Below, piece by piece: positions 1,054 through 10,644 of a DNA stretch of 64,000 bases. The notes under the pieces are model-generated. The model saw only the letters and a list, made by a program, of their open reading frames with translations. It was not told where the DNA came from and made no database searches. The DNA is taken from positions 128,001 to 192,000 of the forward strand of contig JAZJZK010000005.1 in assembly GCA_040389905.1 (NCBI GenBank), in the 5' to 3' direction. The DNA comes from Gemmatimonadota bacterium. GTDB taxonomy: Bacteria; Gemmatimonadota; Gemmatimonadetes; Gemmatimonadales; Gemmatimonadaceae. The number at the start of each line of letters is the position of its first letter. The first letter of the stretch is position 1. The position numbers and the translations under genes were made by a program.

Positions 1054-2388
1054 TCAGAACTCGAAGCCTGCCGAGAAGTTGATGTGGTAGTTCGTGGCCG
1101 AACCCGCAGCGTACTTCGTGCTGATCCGCCGAATCTCTGCCCCGAACACAAGGGGGCCACTGGGACGGACCATCGCATAGCCGGCGCAGGCCTGATTCCG
1201 TAATCGTCCGCCAGCCGGAACATCCAACTCGCGTGGCATATCCGTTCCGCATCCTGCCCCGCCACGCGCCGTCGTCGATAGATCGACATTGAGCTGTGCC
1301 CAGCCACCCTTGTCGTCGAGTGGCGCCAAGCTCGCACCGACGTTCTGGCCAATCCCGCCACCACCGAGTCCTCGAAGCCCTCGGCCCGTAAATGCTTCGC
1401 CCTGCAGGTCTGCACGCGGGCCGAGCGTAAGTTTGGCATCGCATGCGAATGCATGCGTCCGAGCGCTGGGGTTGGACGGCGTCGTGAGCCATCCCACGTG
1501 GGCCCCGCAGCCGATCTCGCTCGGCATGTCCTCACCGCCAAATCGGGCGCGAACGCGGGATTCGAAGGCCGGTCGCCCAGAGCGTTCGGCGGGATCGACG
1601 TCGGTGTCGAATAACCCCACCGCGTCGCCATTGATGTTCGCCAGCATTGCACCCTGAATCCCGAGGCTGATGTCCCCCGCGGATTGGATGGTCGCGCGCA
1701 CTTGAGGGAGCCACAGCCACAGATTGCCAGCCGCCGCGAATGCCGGCGTGCCGATCGCGGCGGGGCTCACGGGATTCAGGCCAGAGACGAGTGGCATCTC
1801 CTGGCCGACGAGCAACTCGCCATGCGTCCACTTAACCGTACTCCGTGCCGTCCGAAGGCGCAGCAGCGGAAAGGTCCGCCCCCCGCTGCTCGGTTGCTGG
1901 CCGCCGAAGAAATCGACGTCGACGTCGCCCACGAAGTGGCCGCCAAGTACATCGCTGGCGGTGAGTACCGCGCCGAGTCGGGTCTGGCGAACAGTCAACG
2001 CCACAGGCGTCCCCGGTGCCGTCGCGGAAATGAGGGCGAACTGCGGATCGTCGGCGTTGTTCACACGCCCATCGTTCCGGAACGCATGCATGAGCACGCT
2101 GCCATTCAACTCGAGTTGCATACGGCTCCGAGTCGAGACGCCGGCAGATGCCTGATCGGCGACCTGCTGCTGAAGGACGGCGATCGCCTGTTCGGCTCTC
2201 CGGAGCCGCGCCGCAAGGGAGTCGGATGCGATGCGAGCAGAATCTGCGGCCGATGGGGTGCGCTGCGCGCCCAGCGGGGTAACACCAAGTCCGGCGGCGC
2301 CCAGAAACCAGATCATGGGCGCAACGCTTGACGCTAAGGGCCGTGTCAGCACACTGTTCAAGCGCGCCGCGGCGAAGAATGCGGTCAT
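1054..2388 (-). CDS. Outer-membrane beta-barrel/porin, DcaP-like (start may be 2316)
   Basis: Signal-peptide-like N-terminus, short coiled coil (LAARLRRAEQAIAVLQQQV), alternating beta-strand pattern, C-terminal FSAGFEF. Confidence 0.7.
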   Translation of the reverse strand: MTAFFAAARLNSVLTRPLASSVAPMIWFLGAAGLGVTPLGAQRTPSAADSARIASDSLAARLRRAEQAIAVLQQQVADQASAGVSTRSRMQLELNGSVLMHAFRNDGRVNNADDPQFALISATAPGTPVALTVRQTRLGAVLTASDVLGGHFVGDVDVDFFGGQQPSSGGRTFPLLRLRTARSTVKWTHGELLVGQEMPLVSGLNPVSPAAIGTPAFAAAGNLWLWLPQVRATIQSAGDISLGIQGAMLANINGDAVGLFDTDVDPAERSGRPAFESRVRARFGGEDMPSEIGCGAHVGWLTTPSNPSARTHAFACDAKLTLGPRADLQGEAFTGRGLRGLGGGGIGQNVGASLAPLDDKGGWAQLNVDLSTTARGGAGCGTDMPRELDVPAGGRLRNQACAGYAMVRPSGPLVFGAEIRRISTKYAAGSATNYHINFSAGFEF

Positions 2389-2412
2389 GTGGCTATTTGC
2401 AGGAGAAAAGGA

Positions 2413-3099
2413 ATGCAAAAACTCGCGATAGCTCGCCTCGTGGCGACACTGATGGTCCTCGGAGTTCCGGCGGTGCACGGACAAGGGGCGGTAACCGGAC
2501 AGGTGAACCTGCTCGAACGTCCGGGGGAGACGACAGAAGACCTCGCAGACGTCATCGTCTGGCTCGAGCCGACAGGCGCGACGAAGTCGCGTACGTCCGC
2601 GAGCACGACGACCATCCAGCTCCAGGGGCGCCAGTTTTCACCACGTGTCCGCGCCGTCACGGAAGGTAGCAAGGTCGAGTTTCCGAACCAAGATTCATTC
2701 AGCCACAACGTATTCTCGAAGCACCCGGATGGGGCGTTCGACACCGGCGTCTATGCCCGTGGACGGACGAAGGACCAGACCTTCAAGGAGTCGGGCATTT
2801 TTCCGATCTATTGCAATGTCCATCCGCGGATGACGGGCTACGTCGTCGTCCTCAAGACGCCATATTTTGCGCAGGCGAGCGATGACGGCCGTTTCAGTGT
2901 CGGCCGAGTACCGGCCGGCACGTATACAATGCACGTCTGGCACGACCGCGTGCCGATGGAGACGACGAAAGACGTGGTGGTGACTGCATCCGGGCTGGCG
3001 GTTGGTCGCGTAGAGATGGATGCGAAGGGCTATCGCTACGTCCAGCACAAGAACAAGTTCGGGCAGGAGTATACGAACGCCGCGGGCGATCGATACTAG
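2413..3099 (+). CDS. Secreted cupredoxin-like protein with a carboxypeptidase-regulatory-like C-terminal beta-sandwich ('methylamine utilization protein'-like)
   Basis: SD AGGAG at 2401; signal peptide; FSPRV, FPNQD, HNVFS and YCNVHPRM motifs (His...Cys-x2-His-x2-Met). Confidence 0.8.
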   Translation: MQKLAIARLVATLMVLGVPAVHGQGAVTGQVNLLERPGETTEDLADVIVWLEPTGATKSRTSASTTTIQLQGRQFSPRVRAVTEGSKVEFPNQDSFSHNVFSKHPDGAFDTGVYARGRTKDQTFKESGIFPIYCNVHPRMTGYVVVLKTPYFAQASDDGRFSVGRVPAGTYTMHVWHDRVPMETTKDVVVTASGLAVGRVEMDAKGYRYVQHKNKFGQEYTNAAGDRY

Positions 3100-3140
3100 C
3101 GGGCTTGTCGCTGGAACCACCTCACTTCGATCGGCACGAC

Positions 3141-5234
3141 ATGCCCCGGTTCGGCCTCTCACTCAAGATCTTCCTCGGCACCGCGGCAGTCGTCACCGCA
3201 GTGCTTGCGATCACGCTCTTCGTAACGTCCGCATCGGCACGATCGAATGCGGGCGACTCGATCGAGCGAGGCCTGAGGGAGACCAACGCTCGGGTCGCCG
3301 AGCAGCTCCGTTCGCGACAGAAGGAACTCGCCGGCAAGCTGCAGGTGTTCGCACAGAATCCCGTCGTCGTCCAGAACATCGTGAACGATTCGTCGGGGAA
3401 CAATGCGTTCGACCAGGCAGGCGTCGCGGTGGAAGCGAGCGGAGCGAAATGGGTGCAGGTGCTCGACGCCGCCGGGATCGTCCTTGCGAAGAGCGACGAC
3501 CGCTCGGCGAAGGGCCGCGATATTTCGCAGTCGCCGCTCGTCGTGAGCGCGCTCCAGGGGACCGCCGCCAGCGGGATGGGCGTATTCGGCGACACGACGA
3601 TCATACAGCTCGTGGCCATCCCGATGCTGAGTAACCTGAACAATGCGGTCAGCGCAGTCGGTGTGCTCCTGGCCGCGGAACAGATTGGCGATTCCCTGGC
3701 GTCTGCGATCGGCGCGACGACAGGCAGTCAGGTGGCGTTTTACGTCATCGATTCGACCGGTGCGCCGCGCATCGTCGGCTCATCGATCCCGGCCGCTGAG
3801 CGAAAGCCGCTGCAGGATGAGCTCTCGGCGAGGCTCAGGGACACCACGATGCGAGCCGCTCCGACTCCGGCCGCGCGGACTGACAGCGGACCTGCTGCGA
3901 AGAAGGACACGAGCGCGATGGGCAAAGCCAGCGCGCAAGGCTCCATCGACATCGGCGGCACGGCATACGTTGGACAAACGACGCCGATCTTCAGCGCCGG
4001 AGGGTCCGAGATCGGCGGTTTCCTCGCGATGCGGTCGCTCGATGCTGAACTCGCGGGATTCTACGATCTGCGACGCAAGTTGCTGCTCGCCGGGGCCGTG
4101 GGTCTGATCGTCGCGTTCCTGTTGTCCGGAGCGATCACCCGGCAGATCGTGCGGCCCGTAACGGCGCTCGTCATGGCCACACGCCGCGCAGCAGACGGCG
4201 ACTATGCAGCCGAAATCCCAGCGGGCGGCGGCGACGAAATCGGTACGCTCGCCGATGCCGTTCGGCGGCTGCTTGGCGATTTACGCGACAAGCAGGCGCT
4301 CGTGGATTTCCTCGGCGGCGGACGGGCAATGGCGACCGGAACGCTCGTTGGTGGCGATGGCGACGCGACGGCGTTGATGCCCGGCGTCGCGCCTCGCACC
4401 GGTGTGTTGATGCCGGGCCAGTCGCTGGGCGTTCGCTACGACATCAAGGCGACGCTCGGCGCGGGCGGGATGGGAATGGTCTATCGCGCCGTCGATCGCG
4501 AACTCCAGGAAGTCGTCGCCATCAAGACGCTCAAGCCCGAGATCCTCGCGGGTGACGACACCGCGCTCGAGCGTTTCAAGAGCGAGATCCGACTCGCCCG
4601 CAAGATCTCGCACCGCAACGTCGTGCGGACGCACGATCTCGGCGAGGCGAACGGGCTCTATTTCATCACGATGGAGTTCGTCGAAGGGACGTCGCTCAAG
4701 GATCTCGTGCGGGCACGCGGGCGGCTGCCCGTGCAGGTGCTCCTGCCCATCGCGAAGCAGCTCTGTCGAGCGCTCGAGGTCGCGCATGAGGCCGGCGTGA
4801 TCCATCGCGACATCAAGCCACAGAACATGGTGGTGGAGGGCGATGGCACGTTGAAGGTCATGGACTTCGGCATTGCGCGACTCGCATCGCGCGCGCCGCA
4901 ACAGGGATTGACGCAGGCGGGCATGGTCATTGGGACGCCGGAGTACATGGCGCCCGAGCAATTGCTCGGCGACGAACTCGATGCGCGCGCCGATATCTAC
5001 TCGGCCGGTGTCGTATTGTATGAGTGCCTGACCGGCAAAGTGCCGTTCGACGCTCCAACCCCGATTGCGCTCATCTCTCGGGTACTCGAAGAGACGCCAG
5101 TCGCTCCACATGCCGCGTTTGCCGACATTCCCCAGGTACTCAGCGCGCTCGTCATGCGCGCGATGTCACGCGACCGCGATGCGCGCCCAGCGACGGCGCA
5201 GTTGTTCCACGACGCGCTCGAACAGATTGGTTGA
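3141..5234 (+). CDS. Membrane Ser/Thr protein kinase (TM-Cache-like-TM-HAMP-Hanks kinase)
   Basis: LGAGGMGMVY, VAIK, HRDIKPQN, DFG, GTPEYMAPE; two hydrophobic helices; HAMP motif (RPVTAL...DEIGTLA). Confidence 0.92.
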   Translation: MPRFGLSLKIFLGTAAVVTAVLAITLFVTSASARSNAGDSIERGLRETNARVAEQLRSRQKELAGKLQVFAQNPVVVQNIVNDSSGNNAFDQAGVAVEASGAKWVQVLDAAGIVLAKSDDRSAKGRDISQSPLVVSALQGTAASGMGVFGDTTIIQLVAIPMLSNLNNAVSAVGVLLAAEQIGDSLASAIGATTGSQVAFYVIDSTGAPRIVGSSIPAAERKPLQDELSARLRDTTMRAAPTPAARTDSGPAAKKDTSAMGKASAQGSIDIGGTAYVGQTTPIFSAGGSEIGGFLAMRSLDAELAGFYDLRRKLLLAGAVGLIVAFLLSGAITRQIVRPVTALVMATRRAADGDYAAEIPAGGGDEIGTLADAVRRLLGDLRDKQALVDFLGGGRAMATGTLVGGDGDATALMPGVAPRTGVLMPGQSLGVRYDIKATLGAGGMGMVYRAVDRELQEVVAIKTLKPEILAGDDTALERFKSEIRLARKISHRNVVRTHDLGEANGLYFITMEFVEGTSLKDLVRARGRLPVQVLLPIAKQLCRALEVAHEAGVIHRDIKPQNMVVEGDGTLKVMDFGIARLASRAPQQGLTQAGMVIGTPEYMAPEQLLGDELDARADIYSAGVVLYECLTGKVPFDAPTPIALISRVLEETPVAPHAAFADIPQVLSALVMRAMSRDRDARPATAQLFHDALEQIG

Positions 5235-5269: not shown

Positions 5270-6850
5270 ATGCCACGACGCGTTAGCGACAGCGCGGCCG
5301 CGGTCTCGACCCGAATGCCGGGTGGGCGAAAACACGCTGCATCGGACGTCGATGCCGCGCATGTTCTCGACCTGCTCGAAGTTGGCGTGATGATGCTGGG
5401 CCACGACCTTCGTGTGACGTACGCGAATGCGCGGTGGGAGTTATGGATTCCGCAGCCGCTGCTTCCGGAGGCCTCGTTCGAGGACCTGCTCGGCGACGGC
5501 GCCAGTGCGGTCATCGAGGAACTCCGCGGTGTCCTGGCTGACGGGGAGCCGCGGACTGTCCATTTGACGCTCCCGCCCGTGCGTGCGGATGCGCATGGTT
5601 GTCTACTCGACGCGCTCGTGCGCCGGGTGCCTGACGGACTCGTTCTCGAGGTCCGGTCCGATAGCGTCGAGGAACGCGCTGCGATGCACGATATCGCACG
5701 ACGCCTGGCGGAAGTCAGTGACATGGCTGAAGTCCTTCGGGCACTGTGCGACATCGCCATGCGCCAGTGCGGGGGGACAGGCGCGAGCGTGATGCGCGTG
5801 CTCGGAGAGCACGGAGAGGTGGTCGCGTCCGCGGGCGACATGGGGCCGGCATGGGGGCGCACGTTCGCGCTCGAAGGTTCGATGCTCCTTCAGGCGATCT
5901 CGGAGTCAGAGGTCATTCGCGAGGAGAACTACAGCCTGTCCAATCGGCCATTGGCACGCGCCGTTCCGGAACTGGCCGTCGGGCCCGTGCTGATGGCGCC
6001 GCTCAAGGCGCACGGAGAAACGCTCGGCGTGATTGCCGTGAGTCGCCCCGTTGGCGGTCGCGCCTTTCGTCCGCGAGACATCGAACGTCTTCGCGGCTTG
6101 GCGGATCACGCCGCGCTGGCCGTCCACAAGTCGCTCCTGCTCCTGCAAGCGCAAAGCGCCGATCGGGCAAAGGGACGCTTTCTCGCGACGATGAGCCACG
6201 AATTGCGAACGCCGCTCACCGCGCTCGCGGGCTACAATGAACTGCTCGCGGACGAAGTCATCGGGCCACTCAGCGCGCCGCAACTCGACATTCTCGAACG
6301 AATGCGGTCGGTTACGCTGCACCTCTCCGCGATGATCGAGGAGATTCTCTCGTTCACGAGCCTGGAAGAAGGTCGCGAGGTCGTGCGCCCCAGTGAGTTC
6401 CTGGTGGCCGACCTCGTTCGCGCGGCCGTCGCGATCGTGGAACCGATGGCCGAACAGAAGCGGATACGATTGGTCGCAAAGCTCTCGCAGAAGCCGGTCC
6501 GCATGACGAGCGATATCGAAAAGTCCCGGCAAATACTGGTCAACCTCATCGGCAACGCCGTGAAGTTCACCGATTCGGGAAATGTCACCGTTTCCTTGAG
6601 TACGGACGACTCGACCGTTCGCATCGATGTACAGGATACTGGTATCGGCATCCCCCCCGAGGAGCTGGCGCGTCTGTTCAAGCCGTTCGTCCAGGTGGAT
6701 GCCGGACTGACCCGCCGGCACGGCGGAACCGGACTCGGCCTGTACATCTCGCGCCGGCTTGCCACGCTACTGGGCGGTCGGATCGACGTGACCAGCACGG
6801 TGGGCGTCGGATCCACCTTCTCGGTGGTCCTGCCCACTCGAATCGGCTAG
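5270..6850 (+). CDS. PAS/GAF sensor histidine kinase (start uncertain)
   Basis: GAF motif APLKAHGETLGVI; MSHELRTP, NAVKFT, DTGIGI, GTGLGL. Confidence 0.9.
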   Translation: MPRRVSDSAAAVSTRMPGGRKHAASDVDAAHVLDLLEVGVMMLGHDLRVTYANARWELWIPQPLLPEASFEDLLGDGASAVIEELRGVLADGEPRTVHLTLPPVRADAHGCLLDALVRRVPDGLVLEVRSDSVEERAAMHDIARRLAEVSDMAEVLRALCDIAMRQCGGTGASVMRVLGEHGEVVASAGDMGPAWGRTFALEGSMLLQAISESEVIREENYSLSNRPLARAVPELAVGPVLMAPLKAHGETLGVIAVSRPVGGRAFRPRDIERLRGLADHAALAVHKSLLLLQAQSADRAKGRFLATMSHELRTPLTALAGYNELLADEVIGPLSAPQLDILERMRSVTLHLSAMIEEILSFTSLEEGREVVRPSEFLVADLVRAAVAIVEPMAEQKRIRLVAKLSQKPVRMTSDIEKSRQILVNLIGNAVKFTDSGNVTVSLSTDDSTVRIDVQDTGIGIPPEELARLFKPFVQVDAGLTRRHGGTGLGLYISRRLATLLGGRIDVTSTVGVGSTFSVVLPTRIG

Positions 6851-6918: not shown

Positions 6919-9900
6919 ATGAAGCCGGAAGAGCGGAATGTCGAGTTGGATCGTGGCGTCGATCGTGTTGCGAATCGGAAGAGACTCGGCGGCGGACGGT
7001 CGGCCAGCCAATCCATCGCGGCGCTGAGCGATGCCCTCTTCGCGGCGGAAAGAGTCTCTGACGTAACGCACCTGGCCGCTCCCGCACTCAGAACGGCCAC
7101 GGGAGCGCAGTTCGCGCTCCTGACGTTGGACGGCGTCGAATTTCACTTCGACGGCGATGACAGCAAGGGCGTGCGCTCCGTCGCCCTCGACCGGTTGTCC
7201 GCGGCGATTTCCGGCGACGCCGGCGACGTGATCTGGCGAAACGAGGCACAGTTCCTCCGCGACGCCGACCCCGACATTCGCGCCGAAATGGGTACCGCCT
7301 CGCTCGCGATTCTTCCATTTCGTCACAGTACGCGCGACACTGGCGCGATGGTGCTTGGTTTTCAGTACCGCACCGACTTCCCGTCGGAACAACAGGACTT
7401 CCTCCTCGCGGCGGCGACACTCGTCGGGCATGCCCACCAGTACGCGCGAATGCTCGAGCGGAAGCGGGCCGCGCTCGAGGCAATCAACTATCTGGAACGG
7501 GCGAGCCTGTTGCTCGGCAAGGGCACCGATCCAGCCATCGTGCTCGAGCAACTTGCCCGCCTCGCGCTGCCGAGGCTCGGCGATTACGCGATGATCGACC
7601 TCGTCAATGGAGACGGGTCGACTTCCCATGCAGGAGTAGCGCACCAGGATCCCGCCAAGGAGGGACTGCTTCAGGAGTATCGCAGACGCCATCCCGTGTC
7701 GATCGCGCCAACTGCACCGGCAGGCCGCGTGCTGATTACTGGGGAGCCTGAAGTCGTGCCGCGACTCGGCGCGGACGGCCTCGCGAAGTTGGCTGCGAAT
7801 CCAGAACAGCGCGCGATGCTCGAGCAGATCGGCCTATCAGGCTACATGGTCGTGCCGCTTCTGCACCTCGGCAATGCGGTTGGTACGATGGTGTTCGGAC
7901 TGACGACCTCGGACCGATCATTTTCGACGGCGGACGTTGCGCTTGCGGTCGCGGTCGGCGATCGGGTGAGCACGGTGCTGCACGGCATGGCGCTGGTGGA
8001 AGAATCGGAACGCACGCGCGTCGAGGTCGAGCGGGTGAATGCTCAACTGCGCGAACAAGCGGTCGAGCTCGAGGCGTCGAATCACCTGCTCCAGGAACAA
8101 GCCGTCGAGATGGAGCAGCAGACGGAGGAGGCCCGCGCGCTATCCGAAGAACTGGAGAATACGCTGGATGACCTTCGTCGGAGCGAGGGGCGCTTCAAGG
8201 CACTCGTCGATGCCAGTGCACAAGCGGTCTGGCGCAGTGATCCAGCGGGGCAGTTCGTGGAGGTCTCCGACGAGTGGAAAAAGCTCACCGGGGTTACGCC
8301 GACGCCAGAGGGTCAATCGGGCGCGAGCGCCGTGCATGCCGACGACCTGGAGCGAACGTTGACGGAGTGGCGTCGAGCCCTGGTGTCCGGAACGCCGTTC
8401 GAGATCGAGCACCGTCTCAGGCTCGCGAATGGTGATTTCCGCTGGTTCTTCGGGCGCGCGGTCCCGATCTACGATGACGACGGCGACAGGATTCGCGAGT
8501 GGGTTGGCATGCACACCGACGTGCATGAGCAGCACACGCTCTCGGACGAGCAACGTCTCTTGTTACTGGTCGGGAGCGCCGTTCAACAGAAGTACGAGCC
8601 TGACGCACTCGTGCAAACAGTGCTGGCGGCCCTCGCCGAGCACCTCGGCGTCGAGCAGGCGCGGCTCGTCGACGTCGACAGCGTCACCCGCGTCGCAACG
8701 TTGCGTGCCGCACACACGTTTCTGCGTGACGATGGACACCCAGCGCGCAACGCACCGCCGATCCGGCGCGTTGCGCTCTCGCATGTCACCACCGATATCG
8801 ACGCGCAGCTTCGTGGCGAGCCGTCGGTCGTCTCGAATGCGCGGACCGATCCACGCACGTCGCCGTACTACGAGCGGACCTTCGCGCCGACAGGGACGCT
8901 CTCGGAACTGTCCGTGCCGCTGCTGCGCGCTGGCAAGATGGTGGCTGCACTTGCGGTGGCGTCTGGTGTACCGCGAGAGTGGCTGCCGCGCGAGATCATC
9001 ATCGTACGACGGGTGGGTGACAAGCTGTGGTCCGCCTATGAAGCCGCATCAATGCTCAAGGAACTCGAGGCCAAGAACGCCGCGCTCGCGGCCAGCGAGG
9101 CACGGCTCGCGGGCGTCGTCGGGTCGGCAATGGATGCCATTCTGTCCGTGGATGCGGATGGGTTTGTCAGCGTGTTCAATGCGGCGGCCGAAGAGGTATT
9201 CGGCATTCGAGCCGAGAATGCGATGGGCATGCCGCTCAATCAGTTCATCCAATCGCGGCTTGCCGTCGCGAACCTGAGCGCCGATTTGCCCGGAGTGGAT
9301 GCGTTGTCGACGAGCGACATCGGGCATCCCACCGAGGTGGTGGGCTACCGTGCCGATGGCGGAACCTTCCCTGCGGAAGCCACCATCTCACAGGCCGCCG
9401 GCGATGCGGGACGCGCGCTCACGATCGTGCTCCGCGATGTCACCGCGCGTCGCGCACTCGAGGCACAGCTCCTCCAGGCGCAGAAAATGGAGGCCGTCGG
9501 GCGGCTCGCGGGCGGCGTGGCGCATGACTTCAACAACATCCTTACCGTCATTCGCGGCTGCGCGGATTTCCTGCGCGAGTCGATGCCGACAACCGACGAG
9601 CGCCGCGTCGATCTCGACGAGATGCTCGCCGCCACCGATCGCGCGACCACGCTGACACGACAGCTTCTCACGTTCAGCCGCAAGCAGGTGGTCCTCCCAC
9701 GCGTGCTCGACGTGAACATCGTGGTGCGCGGCATCGAGCCCATGCTCCGTCGCCTCATCGGCGAGGAGATCGAACTGGCCGTAATGCTGCAGGGGAATCG
9801 GCTGGCCGTCCGAGCAGATCTCGGCCAGCTCGAGCAAGTGATCATCAACCTCGCCGTGAATGCGCGCGACGCCATGGTGCAGGGCGGGGTACTCGGGATC

Positions 9901-10644
9901 GAAACCGACATCGTGGTCATGACGCCGGACGATGTGCGCCGGCATCAACTCGATCCCATGACGACCGCGCAAGCCACGAGGGTCGGTGAGTACGTCGTGA
10001 TTCGCGTCACGGATACCGGGATCGGGATGGAATCGTCCATCATGGAGCATGTCTTCGAGCCGTTCTTCACGACGAAGTCGGAAGGGCATGGCACCGGTCT
10101 CGGGTTGGCGACCGTTCACGGAATCGTGGCGCAGGCCGGTGGACACGTGCGAGTGCGGAGCGTGGCCTCGGAGGGCACGACATTCGAAGTGTTTCTGCCG
10201 CGTTTGCGGAACGACGATTCGGGGGAGCACCCGCGGGCGGTGCAGCCCGAACAGAGGAAGGCCTCCGGCACCGTTCTGCTCGTCGAGGACGAAGTGACCG
10301 TCCGCCGCTCCGTCCGCCGGATGCTGGAACGTGCCGGCTACACTGTCGTCGAGGCGAGACACGGTGCCGATGCCTTGCTCGTCTGGCGCGAGCACGAGGG
10401 CAAGATCGATCTGGTGCTCACCGATCTCCGCATGCCCGAGCTGGGCGGACGCGAGCTCATTGCCATGCTTCGCGCGATCCGGCCAGACCTTCCCGCGATC
10501 GCGATGTCTGGCTATCCGCCGGAGATGGGGATCGGACCGGTCGAGAACTGGGGCGAGGACCAGCGGCTGCACTTCCTCGCGAAGCCCTTCACGACCGACG
10601 CGTTGCTGTCTGCCGTGGACCGGATGCTTGCCGTCGACGCGTAG
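6919..10644 (+). CDS. Hybrid multi-sensor histidine kinase (GAF-GAF-PAS-GAF-PAS-HisKA-HATPase-REC, CckA-like core)
   Basis: [35 protein letters not shown]; receiver LLVEDE...LTDLRMP...KP. Confidence 0.93.
   Translation: [1241 protein letters not shown]

Follow-up and report, generated by a model that had tools for sequence, protein, structure and literature searches.

Introduction

In several bacterial signalling systems, a receptor consisting of a periplasmic sensor between two transmembrane (TM) helices, followed by a HAMP domain, is set by a periplasmic partner protein, as in YfiB-YfiR-YfiN, TorT-TorS, LuxP-LuxQ and CpxP/ZraP, and the Yfi system adds an outer-membrane component. Blue-copper proteins are, to our knowledge, known as electron shuttles and not as receptor subunits. 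Here, we present an analysis of a locus encoding an outer-membrane beta-barrel, a predicted secreted type-1 copper protein (cupredoxin) and an inner-membrane receptor kinase with a periplasmic dCache sensor domain. The locus lies in a 64,000-nt stretch of DNA (the window; positions 128,001 to 192,000 of the forward strand of contig JAZJZK010000005.1, assembly GCA_040389905.1) of a Gemmatimonadota bacterium (Gemmatimonadaceae). We conclude that the module is real and conserved, that it is apparently undescribed, and that there is a fair chance that it represents a copper-based redox receptor of a new kind.

The accessory-protein systems named above follow the same logic of a periplasmic partner setting the state of a receptor. 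Here, however, a predicted redox metalloprotein takes the partner's place, with a fold unrelated to YfiR, the periplasmic binding proteins and CpxP, the outer-membrane part is a predicted porin, and the outputs are interchangeable; none of the three window proteins matches the YfiBNR families (YfiR, the OmpA-like lipoprotein YfiB and the diguanylate cyclase YfiN). The cupredoxin resembles amicyanin and pseudoazurin in its fold (Foldseek E ~1e-6; TM-score by target of 0.72-0.74 to amicyanin) and in its His...Cys-x2-His-x2-Met ligand set, but differs from them in its Ig-like domain, its C-terminal tail, its receptor partner and an identity of 20-28%. It scores 21.9 bits with the amicyanin equivalog TIGR02657, far under the cut-off of 110.2, and methylamine dehydrogenase and mau structural genes were absent from the 70 recurrent neighbours scanned (of ~120 candidates; E 1e-8). 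An annotated proteobacterial operon, for which we found no characterisation in the literature searched, combines genes for DUF3034, a globin, a cupredoxin and a GGDEF-EAL protein. Its cupredoxin (26-34% identity) has the same ligands and is accompanied by a homologous dCache domain and an adjacent barrel, in Novosphingobium in a divergent layout; in contrast to the Ser/Thr kinase (STK), the other type of barrel, the lack of a globin and the tail in the window, it has a GGDEF-EAL output, a DUF3034 barrel, a globin and a tail-less cupredoxin.

The barrel is best compared with DcaP of Acinetobacter baumannii (6eus), which has 16 strands, a periplasmic coiled coil at the N terminus and an arginine-lined, anion-selective pore with conserved wall arginines (10.1101/306035). 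The window barrel is predicted to share the strand number and the coiled coil and has conserved arginines of its own; unlike DcaP, to which it is 17% identical, it is paired with signalling genes rather than with carboxylate catabolism, and the DcaP Pfam family is found in 0/55 members of its alignment. In Cyc2 conduits, the barrel carries a PxFAR motif upstream of CxxCH (10.1101/228056), and barrels with this motif adjoin the sister clade of the cupredoxin. The window barrel, in contrast, has neither a haem motif nor detectable similarity to those barrels, and the module has a receptor kinase instead of quinol oxidoreductase genes. No description of the module was found in the openly accessible papers searched, with supplements outside that search; a preliminary description of this DNA had put it forward as its best candidate for an undescribed system. 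In their accessible parts, PMC11429942, PMC10654088, PMC5566968 and PMC3770913 do not describe the module, and PMC11904497, on truncated haemoglobin N, contains neither its gene context nor a description of it.

Results

The three open reading frames of the preliminary description were recovered at the same coordinates, with the barrel gene divergent from the cupredoxin gene and at most 96 bp away from it. The features of the locus are as follows:

1054..2388, minus strand: outer-membrane beta-barrel, predicted DcaP-like 16-stranded porin (AlphaFold model and Foldseek)
2328..2355, plus strand: predicted sigma-70-type promoter facing the cupredoxin-kinase pair (-35 at 2328-2333; -10-like hexamer at 2350-2355)
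2413..3099, plus strand: predicted secreted cupredoxin and Ig-like protein, 228 aa (Pfam, model)
2704..2832, plus strand: predicted type-1 copper ligands His98 (2704-2706), Cys134 (2812-2814), His137 (2821-2823) and Met140 (2830-2832)
3046..3096, plus strand: C-terminal tail of the cupredoxin, H-x-N/D-K-x-G-x-x-Y...R-Y, candidate docking element
3141..5234, plus strand: inner-membrane receptor kinase, 697 aa (Pfam; an alternative TTG start at 3105 is possible)

The barrel gene may start at an ATG at 2388 (444 aa) or at 2316 (420 aa), leaving a start-to-start gap to the cupredoxin gene of 24 or 96 bp; because the longer frame overlaps the promoter on the opposite strand, the start at 2316 is likelier. 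The kinase gene begins 41 bp past the cupredoxin stop codon. Close homologues carry the names Gemmatimonadetes or Gemmatimonadaceae, which agrees with the origin of the DNA.

Some match to the cupredoxin was found in 233 of 301 Gemmatimonadota genomes (a single unpublished genome is included in this tally, G156, and another in that of 201 genomes below, G447; all other claims are independent of the two). A full-length group that stands apart (E < 1e-42) occupies 80 places in 77 genomes, with the gene order of the window throughout. At the 60 of the 79 other places that were inspected, the sensor lies directly downstream in 60/60, the kinase is visible in 59 (one is at a contig edge) and the barrel is present in 51 (41 divergent and 10 co-directional). 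Independent profile searches placed the sensor within 700 bp of the cupredoxin at 80/80 places and the barrel within 1200 bp at 68/80; thus, the co-occurrence in other genomes on which the preliminary description had made its proposal depend holds. Conversely, 88 of 94 sensor matches (87 listed and one found at a contig end) and 69 of 73 strong barrel places adjoin a cupredoxin; for these counts, split matches were merged and nine weak barrel matches were dropped, six of which were inspected and lie without either partner. Exceptions to the linkage include two cases at contig edges and two genomes in which the barrel stands by itself. Because kin are not independent, the linkage counts show conservation and do not serve as a test statistic. 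One locus (L196; G180:C3:280879-281649) is a deletion relic, in which the sensor gene ends after the second membrane helix and the cupredoxin, barrel and kinase are lost, while the flanking genes are kept.

The pairing of the cupredoxin with this dCache subfamily extends over five phyla (Gemmatimonadota, Acidobacteriota, Myxococcota, Fidelibacterota and Pseudomonadota), and the output domain, for which the preliminary description had suggested a tally, varies. Among 178 sensor-linked loci, a sample weighted to the two most-searched phyla, the output is an STK in 112, a histidine kinase (HK) in 25, a nucleotide cyclase in 11, a cyclase together with an STK in 5, GGDEF-EAL in 4 and a PP2C phosphatase in 1, while 20 are cut off. 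Strong cupredoxin matches were also found in further samples (24/121 genomes, and 55/201 Acidobacteriota genomes), where they pair with other outputs. In 9/9 Acidobacteriota genomes with the window barrel type, the sole match to the sensor family lies within a kinase-barrel-cupredoxin operon, with a regulator visible in eight, so that the trio is shared by two phyla with differing order and output. Small soluble CuA-type cupredoxins, possible regulated targets, were seen near the acidobacterial regulator-kinase-barrel-cupredoxin operon (L285:11026-11427, L291:616-1023 and L292:13276-13719).

The preliminary description had also mentioned proteobacterial pairs of a cupredoxin and an outer-membrane protein beside HAMP-GGDEF/EAL genes. 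This arrangement exists, as DUF3034 - truncated haemoglobin - 'methylamine utilization protein' - HAMP-GGDEF-EAL, with a homologous sensor: a sensor profile built from Gemmatimonadota only matches the periplasmic part of all four GGDEF-EAL partners from Proteobacteria (E 6e-22 to 7e-6), as well as that of four HK partners (E 2e-28 to 9e-23). At the four plasmid loci of Pseudomonadota, an EAL protein follows the 'methylamine utilization protein' in 4/4, and DUF3034 and a group 1 truncated haemoglobin are present in three; at 3/4 loci, the truncated haemoglobins have N-termini that look, by eye, like signal peptides. A local two-sequence profile of DUF3034 gave no match in the host genome. A DUF4394 protein was observed near the cupredoxin on a Comamonas plasmid (L114:3928-4878) and in an unrelated genome (L303:1115-1972).

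The cupredoxin protein has a signal peptide of ~23 aa, judged by eye, and matches Pfam Copper-bind PF00127 at residues 72-146 (E 1.5e-5, above the cut-off) and fn3_3 at residues 151-193. The cupredoxin domain is inserted in, or joined to, the Ig-like (fn3_3/CarboxypepD_reg) domain, and the conserved tail follows; members of the family are annotated as 'methylamine utilization protein' or 'plastocyanin'. The structural model (pLDDT 95.1) has the Greek-key cupredoxin fold, and its Foldseek matches are amicyanin and pseudoazurin. The His...Cys-x2-His-x2-Met pattern noticed in the preliminary description corresponds to His98, Cys134, His137 and Met140, which align with amicyanin-type sites, and the conservation of these ligands, named there as a point on which the proposal could fail, is complete: each is present in 60/60 orthologues, a clean count as these were picked by whole-protein score. 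All four, including the axial Met, are also kept in 178/178 sensor-linked homologues, a count that is partly circular, since 80 of the loci, from named genomes of Acidobacteriota, Gemmatimonadota, Myxococcota and Fidelibacterota, were retrieved with a pattern that includes three of the ligands, Cys, His and Met. In the tail, His212, Lys215, Gly217 and Tyr220 are each found in 60/60 orthologues, and the tail is common in other phyla too. A sensor is present for 154 of the 159 tail-bearing homologues with room downstream, and the tail occurs in 0/13 Cyc2-linked proteins. A second paralogue in the host genome (G000, C9:4168-4632, in the Ig-cupredoxin gene C9:3751-4665; L031) was excluded from the system, as three of its four ligands are replaced and a sensor was not found nearby.

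The receptor consists of TM1, a periplasmic dCache domain (~3228-4070), TM2, HAMP (4134-4289; residues 332-383) and the kinase (4437-5210; Pkinase at residues 433-690). The sensor scores 33.2 bits with dCache_3, over the cut-off of 25.7, and 44.4 bits with dCache_1, slightly below 45. The Hanks kinase output proposed in the preliminary description is borne out by a full set of catalytic motifs of an RD-type STK (P-loop, catalytic Lys, HRD...N, DFG and APE), intact here and in 52/58 orthologues. The protein falls outside the PknB/Stk1 PASTA kinases (315 versus 450 bits, from the kinase portion only): those have an N-terminal kinase and extracellular PASTA repeats, whereas here the sensor comes first, with dCache and HAMP domains. 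The sensor profile matches a single gene of the host genome, namely 3141-5234, and a PDB sequence search with this profile gave nothing significant. Across phyla, the sensor is weakly conserved, with one invariant column, in contrast to the copper site; because the alignments contain no conserved His, Cys or Met in the sensor domain, the predicted metal site of the unit sits on the partner protein. At all 10 loci with a co-directional barrel (L044, L048, L050, L054, L055, L063, L068, L072, L079 and L081), the RD arginine of the kinase is lost, and 6 of them miss further catalytic residues (pseudokinases); copper ligands, sensor and barrel are still kept. These loci share an upstream anti-sigma gene, with an ECF sigma seen in three and a downstream Ig-cupredoxin-CHRD protein in six.

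The barrel model (mean pLDDT 86.7) has an N-terminal helix, predicted to form a periplasmic coiled coil, followed by an all-beta barrel with a C-terminal Phe. Its top Foldseek match is DcaP (E 1.2e-16; TM-score 0.65/0.75), with other 16-stranded porins next, and its structural look-alikes in the Atlas include DcaP clusters. By sequence, the window barrel gave no Pfam or NCBIfam match, a Pfam family was found for 0/55 alignment members, PF19577 (DcaP) included, and a PDB search with the barrel profile gave nothing significant. Arg134, Arg177, Arg179 and Arg231 are conserved in 54-55/55 barrels, His297 is invariant and His435 near-invariant; in the sequence alignment, the conserved charged residues are mostly Arg. 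Barrel-like neighbours at other loci (DUF3034, Porin_5-like, several unnamed groups and Cyc2-like) are unlike the window barrel, with hhalign probabilities of at most 11 (3 for DUF3034). At the 71 pattern-found sensor loci, the barrel is of the window type at 21 and of another type at 15, and neither is present at 18 despite ample flanks. Thus, of the porin-cupredoxin-kinase module proposed in the preliminary description, the core of cupredoxin and sensor stands, while the porin is not a constant part: the barrel is exchangeable, and the obligate core is the cupredoxin with the dCache sensor.

The -35 pentamer of the predicted promoter was found in 28/38 divergent intergenic regions (shuffle mean 2.2, maximum 8, in 200 shuffles), and a strict -35/-10 pattern in 10/38 (0.05 in shuffles). 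A consensus promoter scan did not detect the promoter at 2328-2355, and a sigma-54 promoter was found in 0/38 divergent gaps. A housekeeping-type promoter fits a standing sensor.

A tree of 174 cupredoxins was made by a quick method with subsampled STK rows and a midpoint root. All 13 Cyc2-linked members fall in a 24-row clade (SH-aLRT 98), along with others that have Rieske/cytochrome b or multihaem cytochrome genes as neighbours, and the sensor-linked cupredoxins all lie outside it. Other family members are flanked by di-haem peroxidase-like and multihaem cytochromes. Of 73 longer homologues, 38 are truncated haemoglobin-cupredoxin fusions, most of which have lipoprotein-like signals, and those with a named source come from Myxococcota; we accept the fusions as genuine, because the copper motif is kept in 35/35 of those listed and they have a uniform look. 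At eight loci with such fusions, peroxidase-like cytochromes and STKs lie near. The Cyc2/Rieske/cytochrome and globin-fusion contexts point to an electron-carrying copper site. With regard to the signal, which the preliminary description had given as copper, redox state or an imported ligand, the neighbouring genes speak for redox or haem-linked chemistry rather than for copper resistance.

Two groups of relatives were observed alongside. A tail-less cupredoxin adjoins a Cyc2-like cytochrome-porin at several loci (L096-L098, L108, L109 and L234-L244), with Rieske and cytochrome b genes next in several; these loci, in Gemmatimonadota and the phylum of genome G301, are candidates for an outer-membrane-to-quinone electron conduit. 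The globin-cupredoxin fusions of Myxococcota (P0264-P0315; L216-L223, L249) end in a D/N-K-F-G tail and stand beside di-haem peroxidase-like cytochromes; no description of a protein fusing haem and a predicted type-1 copper site was found in the literature searched.

Around the module, the window encodes cytoplasmic PAS/GAF histidine kinases (1-888, 5270-6850 and 6919-10644). These are not part of it, because similar flanks were seen only at L148 and at L032, a locus of the same genus, and are absent from other relatives. The short intergenic stretch at 900-1025, following the histidine kinase gene, resembles, by eye, a palindromic repeat element. In two families, genes for MsrP/MsrQ, or an MsrP-like molybdoenzyme, and cytochrome b lie near the module (upstream in L033-L040, downstream in L046-L078; 21 loci in cluster 3), which may reflect chance synteny or a link to periplasmic oxidative repair.

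Discussion

The cupredoxin and the sensor very probably form one functional unit. As to what this unit does, the best reading, which we regard as about as likely as not, is a periplasmic redox sensor, in which the predicted type-1 copper protein would set the state of the dCache receptor; copper binding, contact and signal are here predictions from sequence. In this mechanism, the secreted cupredoxin would bind redox-active copper and dock on the periplasmic dCache domain, possibly via the conserved tail. The porin may admit a small anionic redox-active solute, or hold the cupredoxin near it, and a change between Cu(I) and Cu(II) would be relayed via TM2 and HAMP to kinase autophosphorylation. 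The exported truncated haemoglobin of proteobacteria may place an O2/NO-reactive haem ahead of the copper; no such globin was detected in the host genome, where some other oxidant or reductant would therefore serve as input. Tentatively, and at somewhat less than even confidence, we propose a widespread, modular receptor class with a free type-1 copper protein as its input, co-opted from an electron-carrier lineage related to the Cyc2 partners, in which the Cu(I)/Cu(II) state, set via a porin or an exported haemoglobin or cytochrome, may gate a dedicated dCache domain wired to an STK, HK, cyclase, c-di-GMP or phosphatase output. This would be a blue-copper sensor of periplasmic redox state (or of O2/NO), of which the papers searched gave no example.

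Several observations weigh against a redox sensor. The globin profile (from 38 sequences) gave no match at loci L031-L111 or in the host genome, which is 84.6% complete, and CxxCH occurs in 0/55 barrels, which also lack the PxFAR...CxxCH combination of Cyc2, so that neither a globin nor the barrel offers a candidate redox partner in the host. In one genome, the complete sensor-kinase stands without an upstream cupredoxin, and three others retain just remnants of the sensor. Moreover, 17 sensor-linked cupredoxins have no tail, so that the tail is dispensable for the pairing with the sensor, and the eight globin-fusion loci examined lack a clear sensor of the dCache subfamily. The split between electron-transfer and signalling clades depends on the midpoint root and a short branch. 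Covariation (MI-APC, with six within-clade shuffles per pair set) was at the level of the shuffles for 156 cupredoxin-sensor pairs (top z 7.0 versus 7.0-7.2) and for 83 cupredoxin-barrel pairs (7.5 versus 6.3-7.6), both being of low power. Candidate Rosetta-stone fusions of the cupredoxin to the sensor or kinase (17 of 73 long homologues were read) were rejected as frameshift or chimeric artefacts, as they contained out-of-frame Arg-rich stretches or missed parts.

The same data can be read in other ways. The unit could sense the availability of copper: apo versus holo cupredoxin, and not redox, would control the receptor, so that the cell produces copper proteins once the periplasm offers copper, and the porin would admit copper or a chelate. 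Such a role would suit the invariant copper ligands, the conserved His297 and His435 of the barrel, and the presence of another cupredoxin, CuA-type or plastocyanin-like, in the vicinity of 11 of the 157 sensor-linked loci for which genes were called, three of them beside acidobacterial HK-regulator operons; however, a second cupredoxin motif was not seen at the 146 others, and copper ATPase, RND efflux (Cus) and multicopper oxidase families are represented by 0 of the 70 recurrent neighbours scanned. The globin and cytochrome partners would also be left unexplained, and the conserved charges of the barrel are mostly Arg, as in the anion-selective DcaP (10.1101/306035). We consider sensing of copper availability unlikely.

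No more probable, in our judgement, is that a small molecule imported by the porin (e.g., a carboxylate, nitrite or an amine) is bound in the dCache pocket, with the cupredoxin as a scaffold, inhibitor or converting enzyme. dCache domains in general bind small ligands, and YfiR, CpxP and TorT provide models for such a role of the cupredoxin. The four arginines in nearly all barrels and the conserved Asp/Gln/Trp in the kinase-group sensor agree with a ligand of this kind, as does DcaP, the nearest solved barrel, which passes carboxylates and has an Arg-lined constriction (10.1101/306035). Nevertheless, cupredoxin and sensor persist at the 18 loci without a barrel and where the barrel is swapped for families without detectable similarity, the module has no recurrent catabolic or transport genes, and the sensor is poorly conserved across phyla compared with the copper site. 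Finally, it is improbable that the genes are merely co-regulated and physically independent, i.e., an ordinary electron carrier and an ordinary channel beside a receptor regulating them. While the covariation analysis gave no contact signal and Cyc2-clade relatives lie downstream of unrelated two-component systems, the cupredoxin keeps one dCache subfamily as the output varies among five enzyme types, several of them without direct control of transcription; in addition, a conserved, predicted housekeeping-type promoter faces the cupredoxin-kinase pair, and the Gemmatimonadota loci contain no recurrent electron donor or acceptor gene.

The module occurs in abundant soil phyla and in culturable proteobacteria, and it can be tested directly in Novosphingobium sp. 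EMRT-2 and Burkholderia sp. THE68, which carry the c-di-GMP version. If the proposed redox sensor is correct, three families without annotation would gain a function at once, i.e., the misnamed 'methylamine utilization protein', the DUF3034-type and DcaP-like barrels, and the exported group 1 truncated haemoglobins, and it would provide a testable route by which bacteria read redox conditions outside the cytoplasm.

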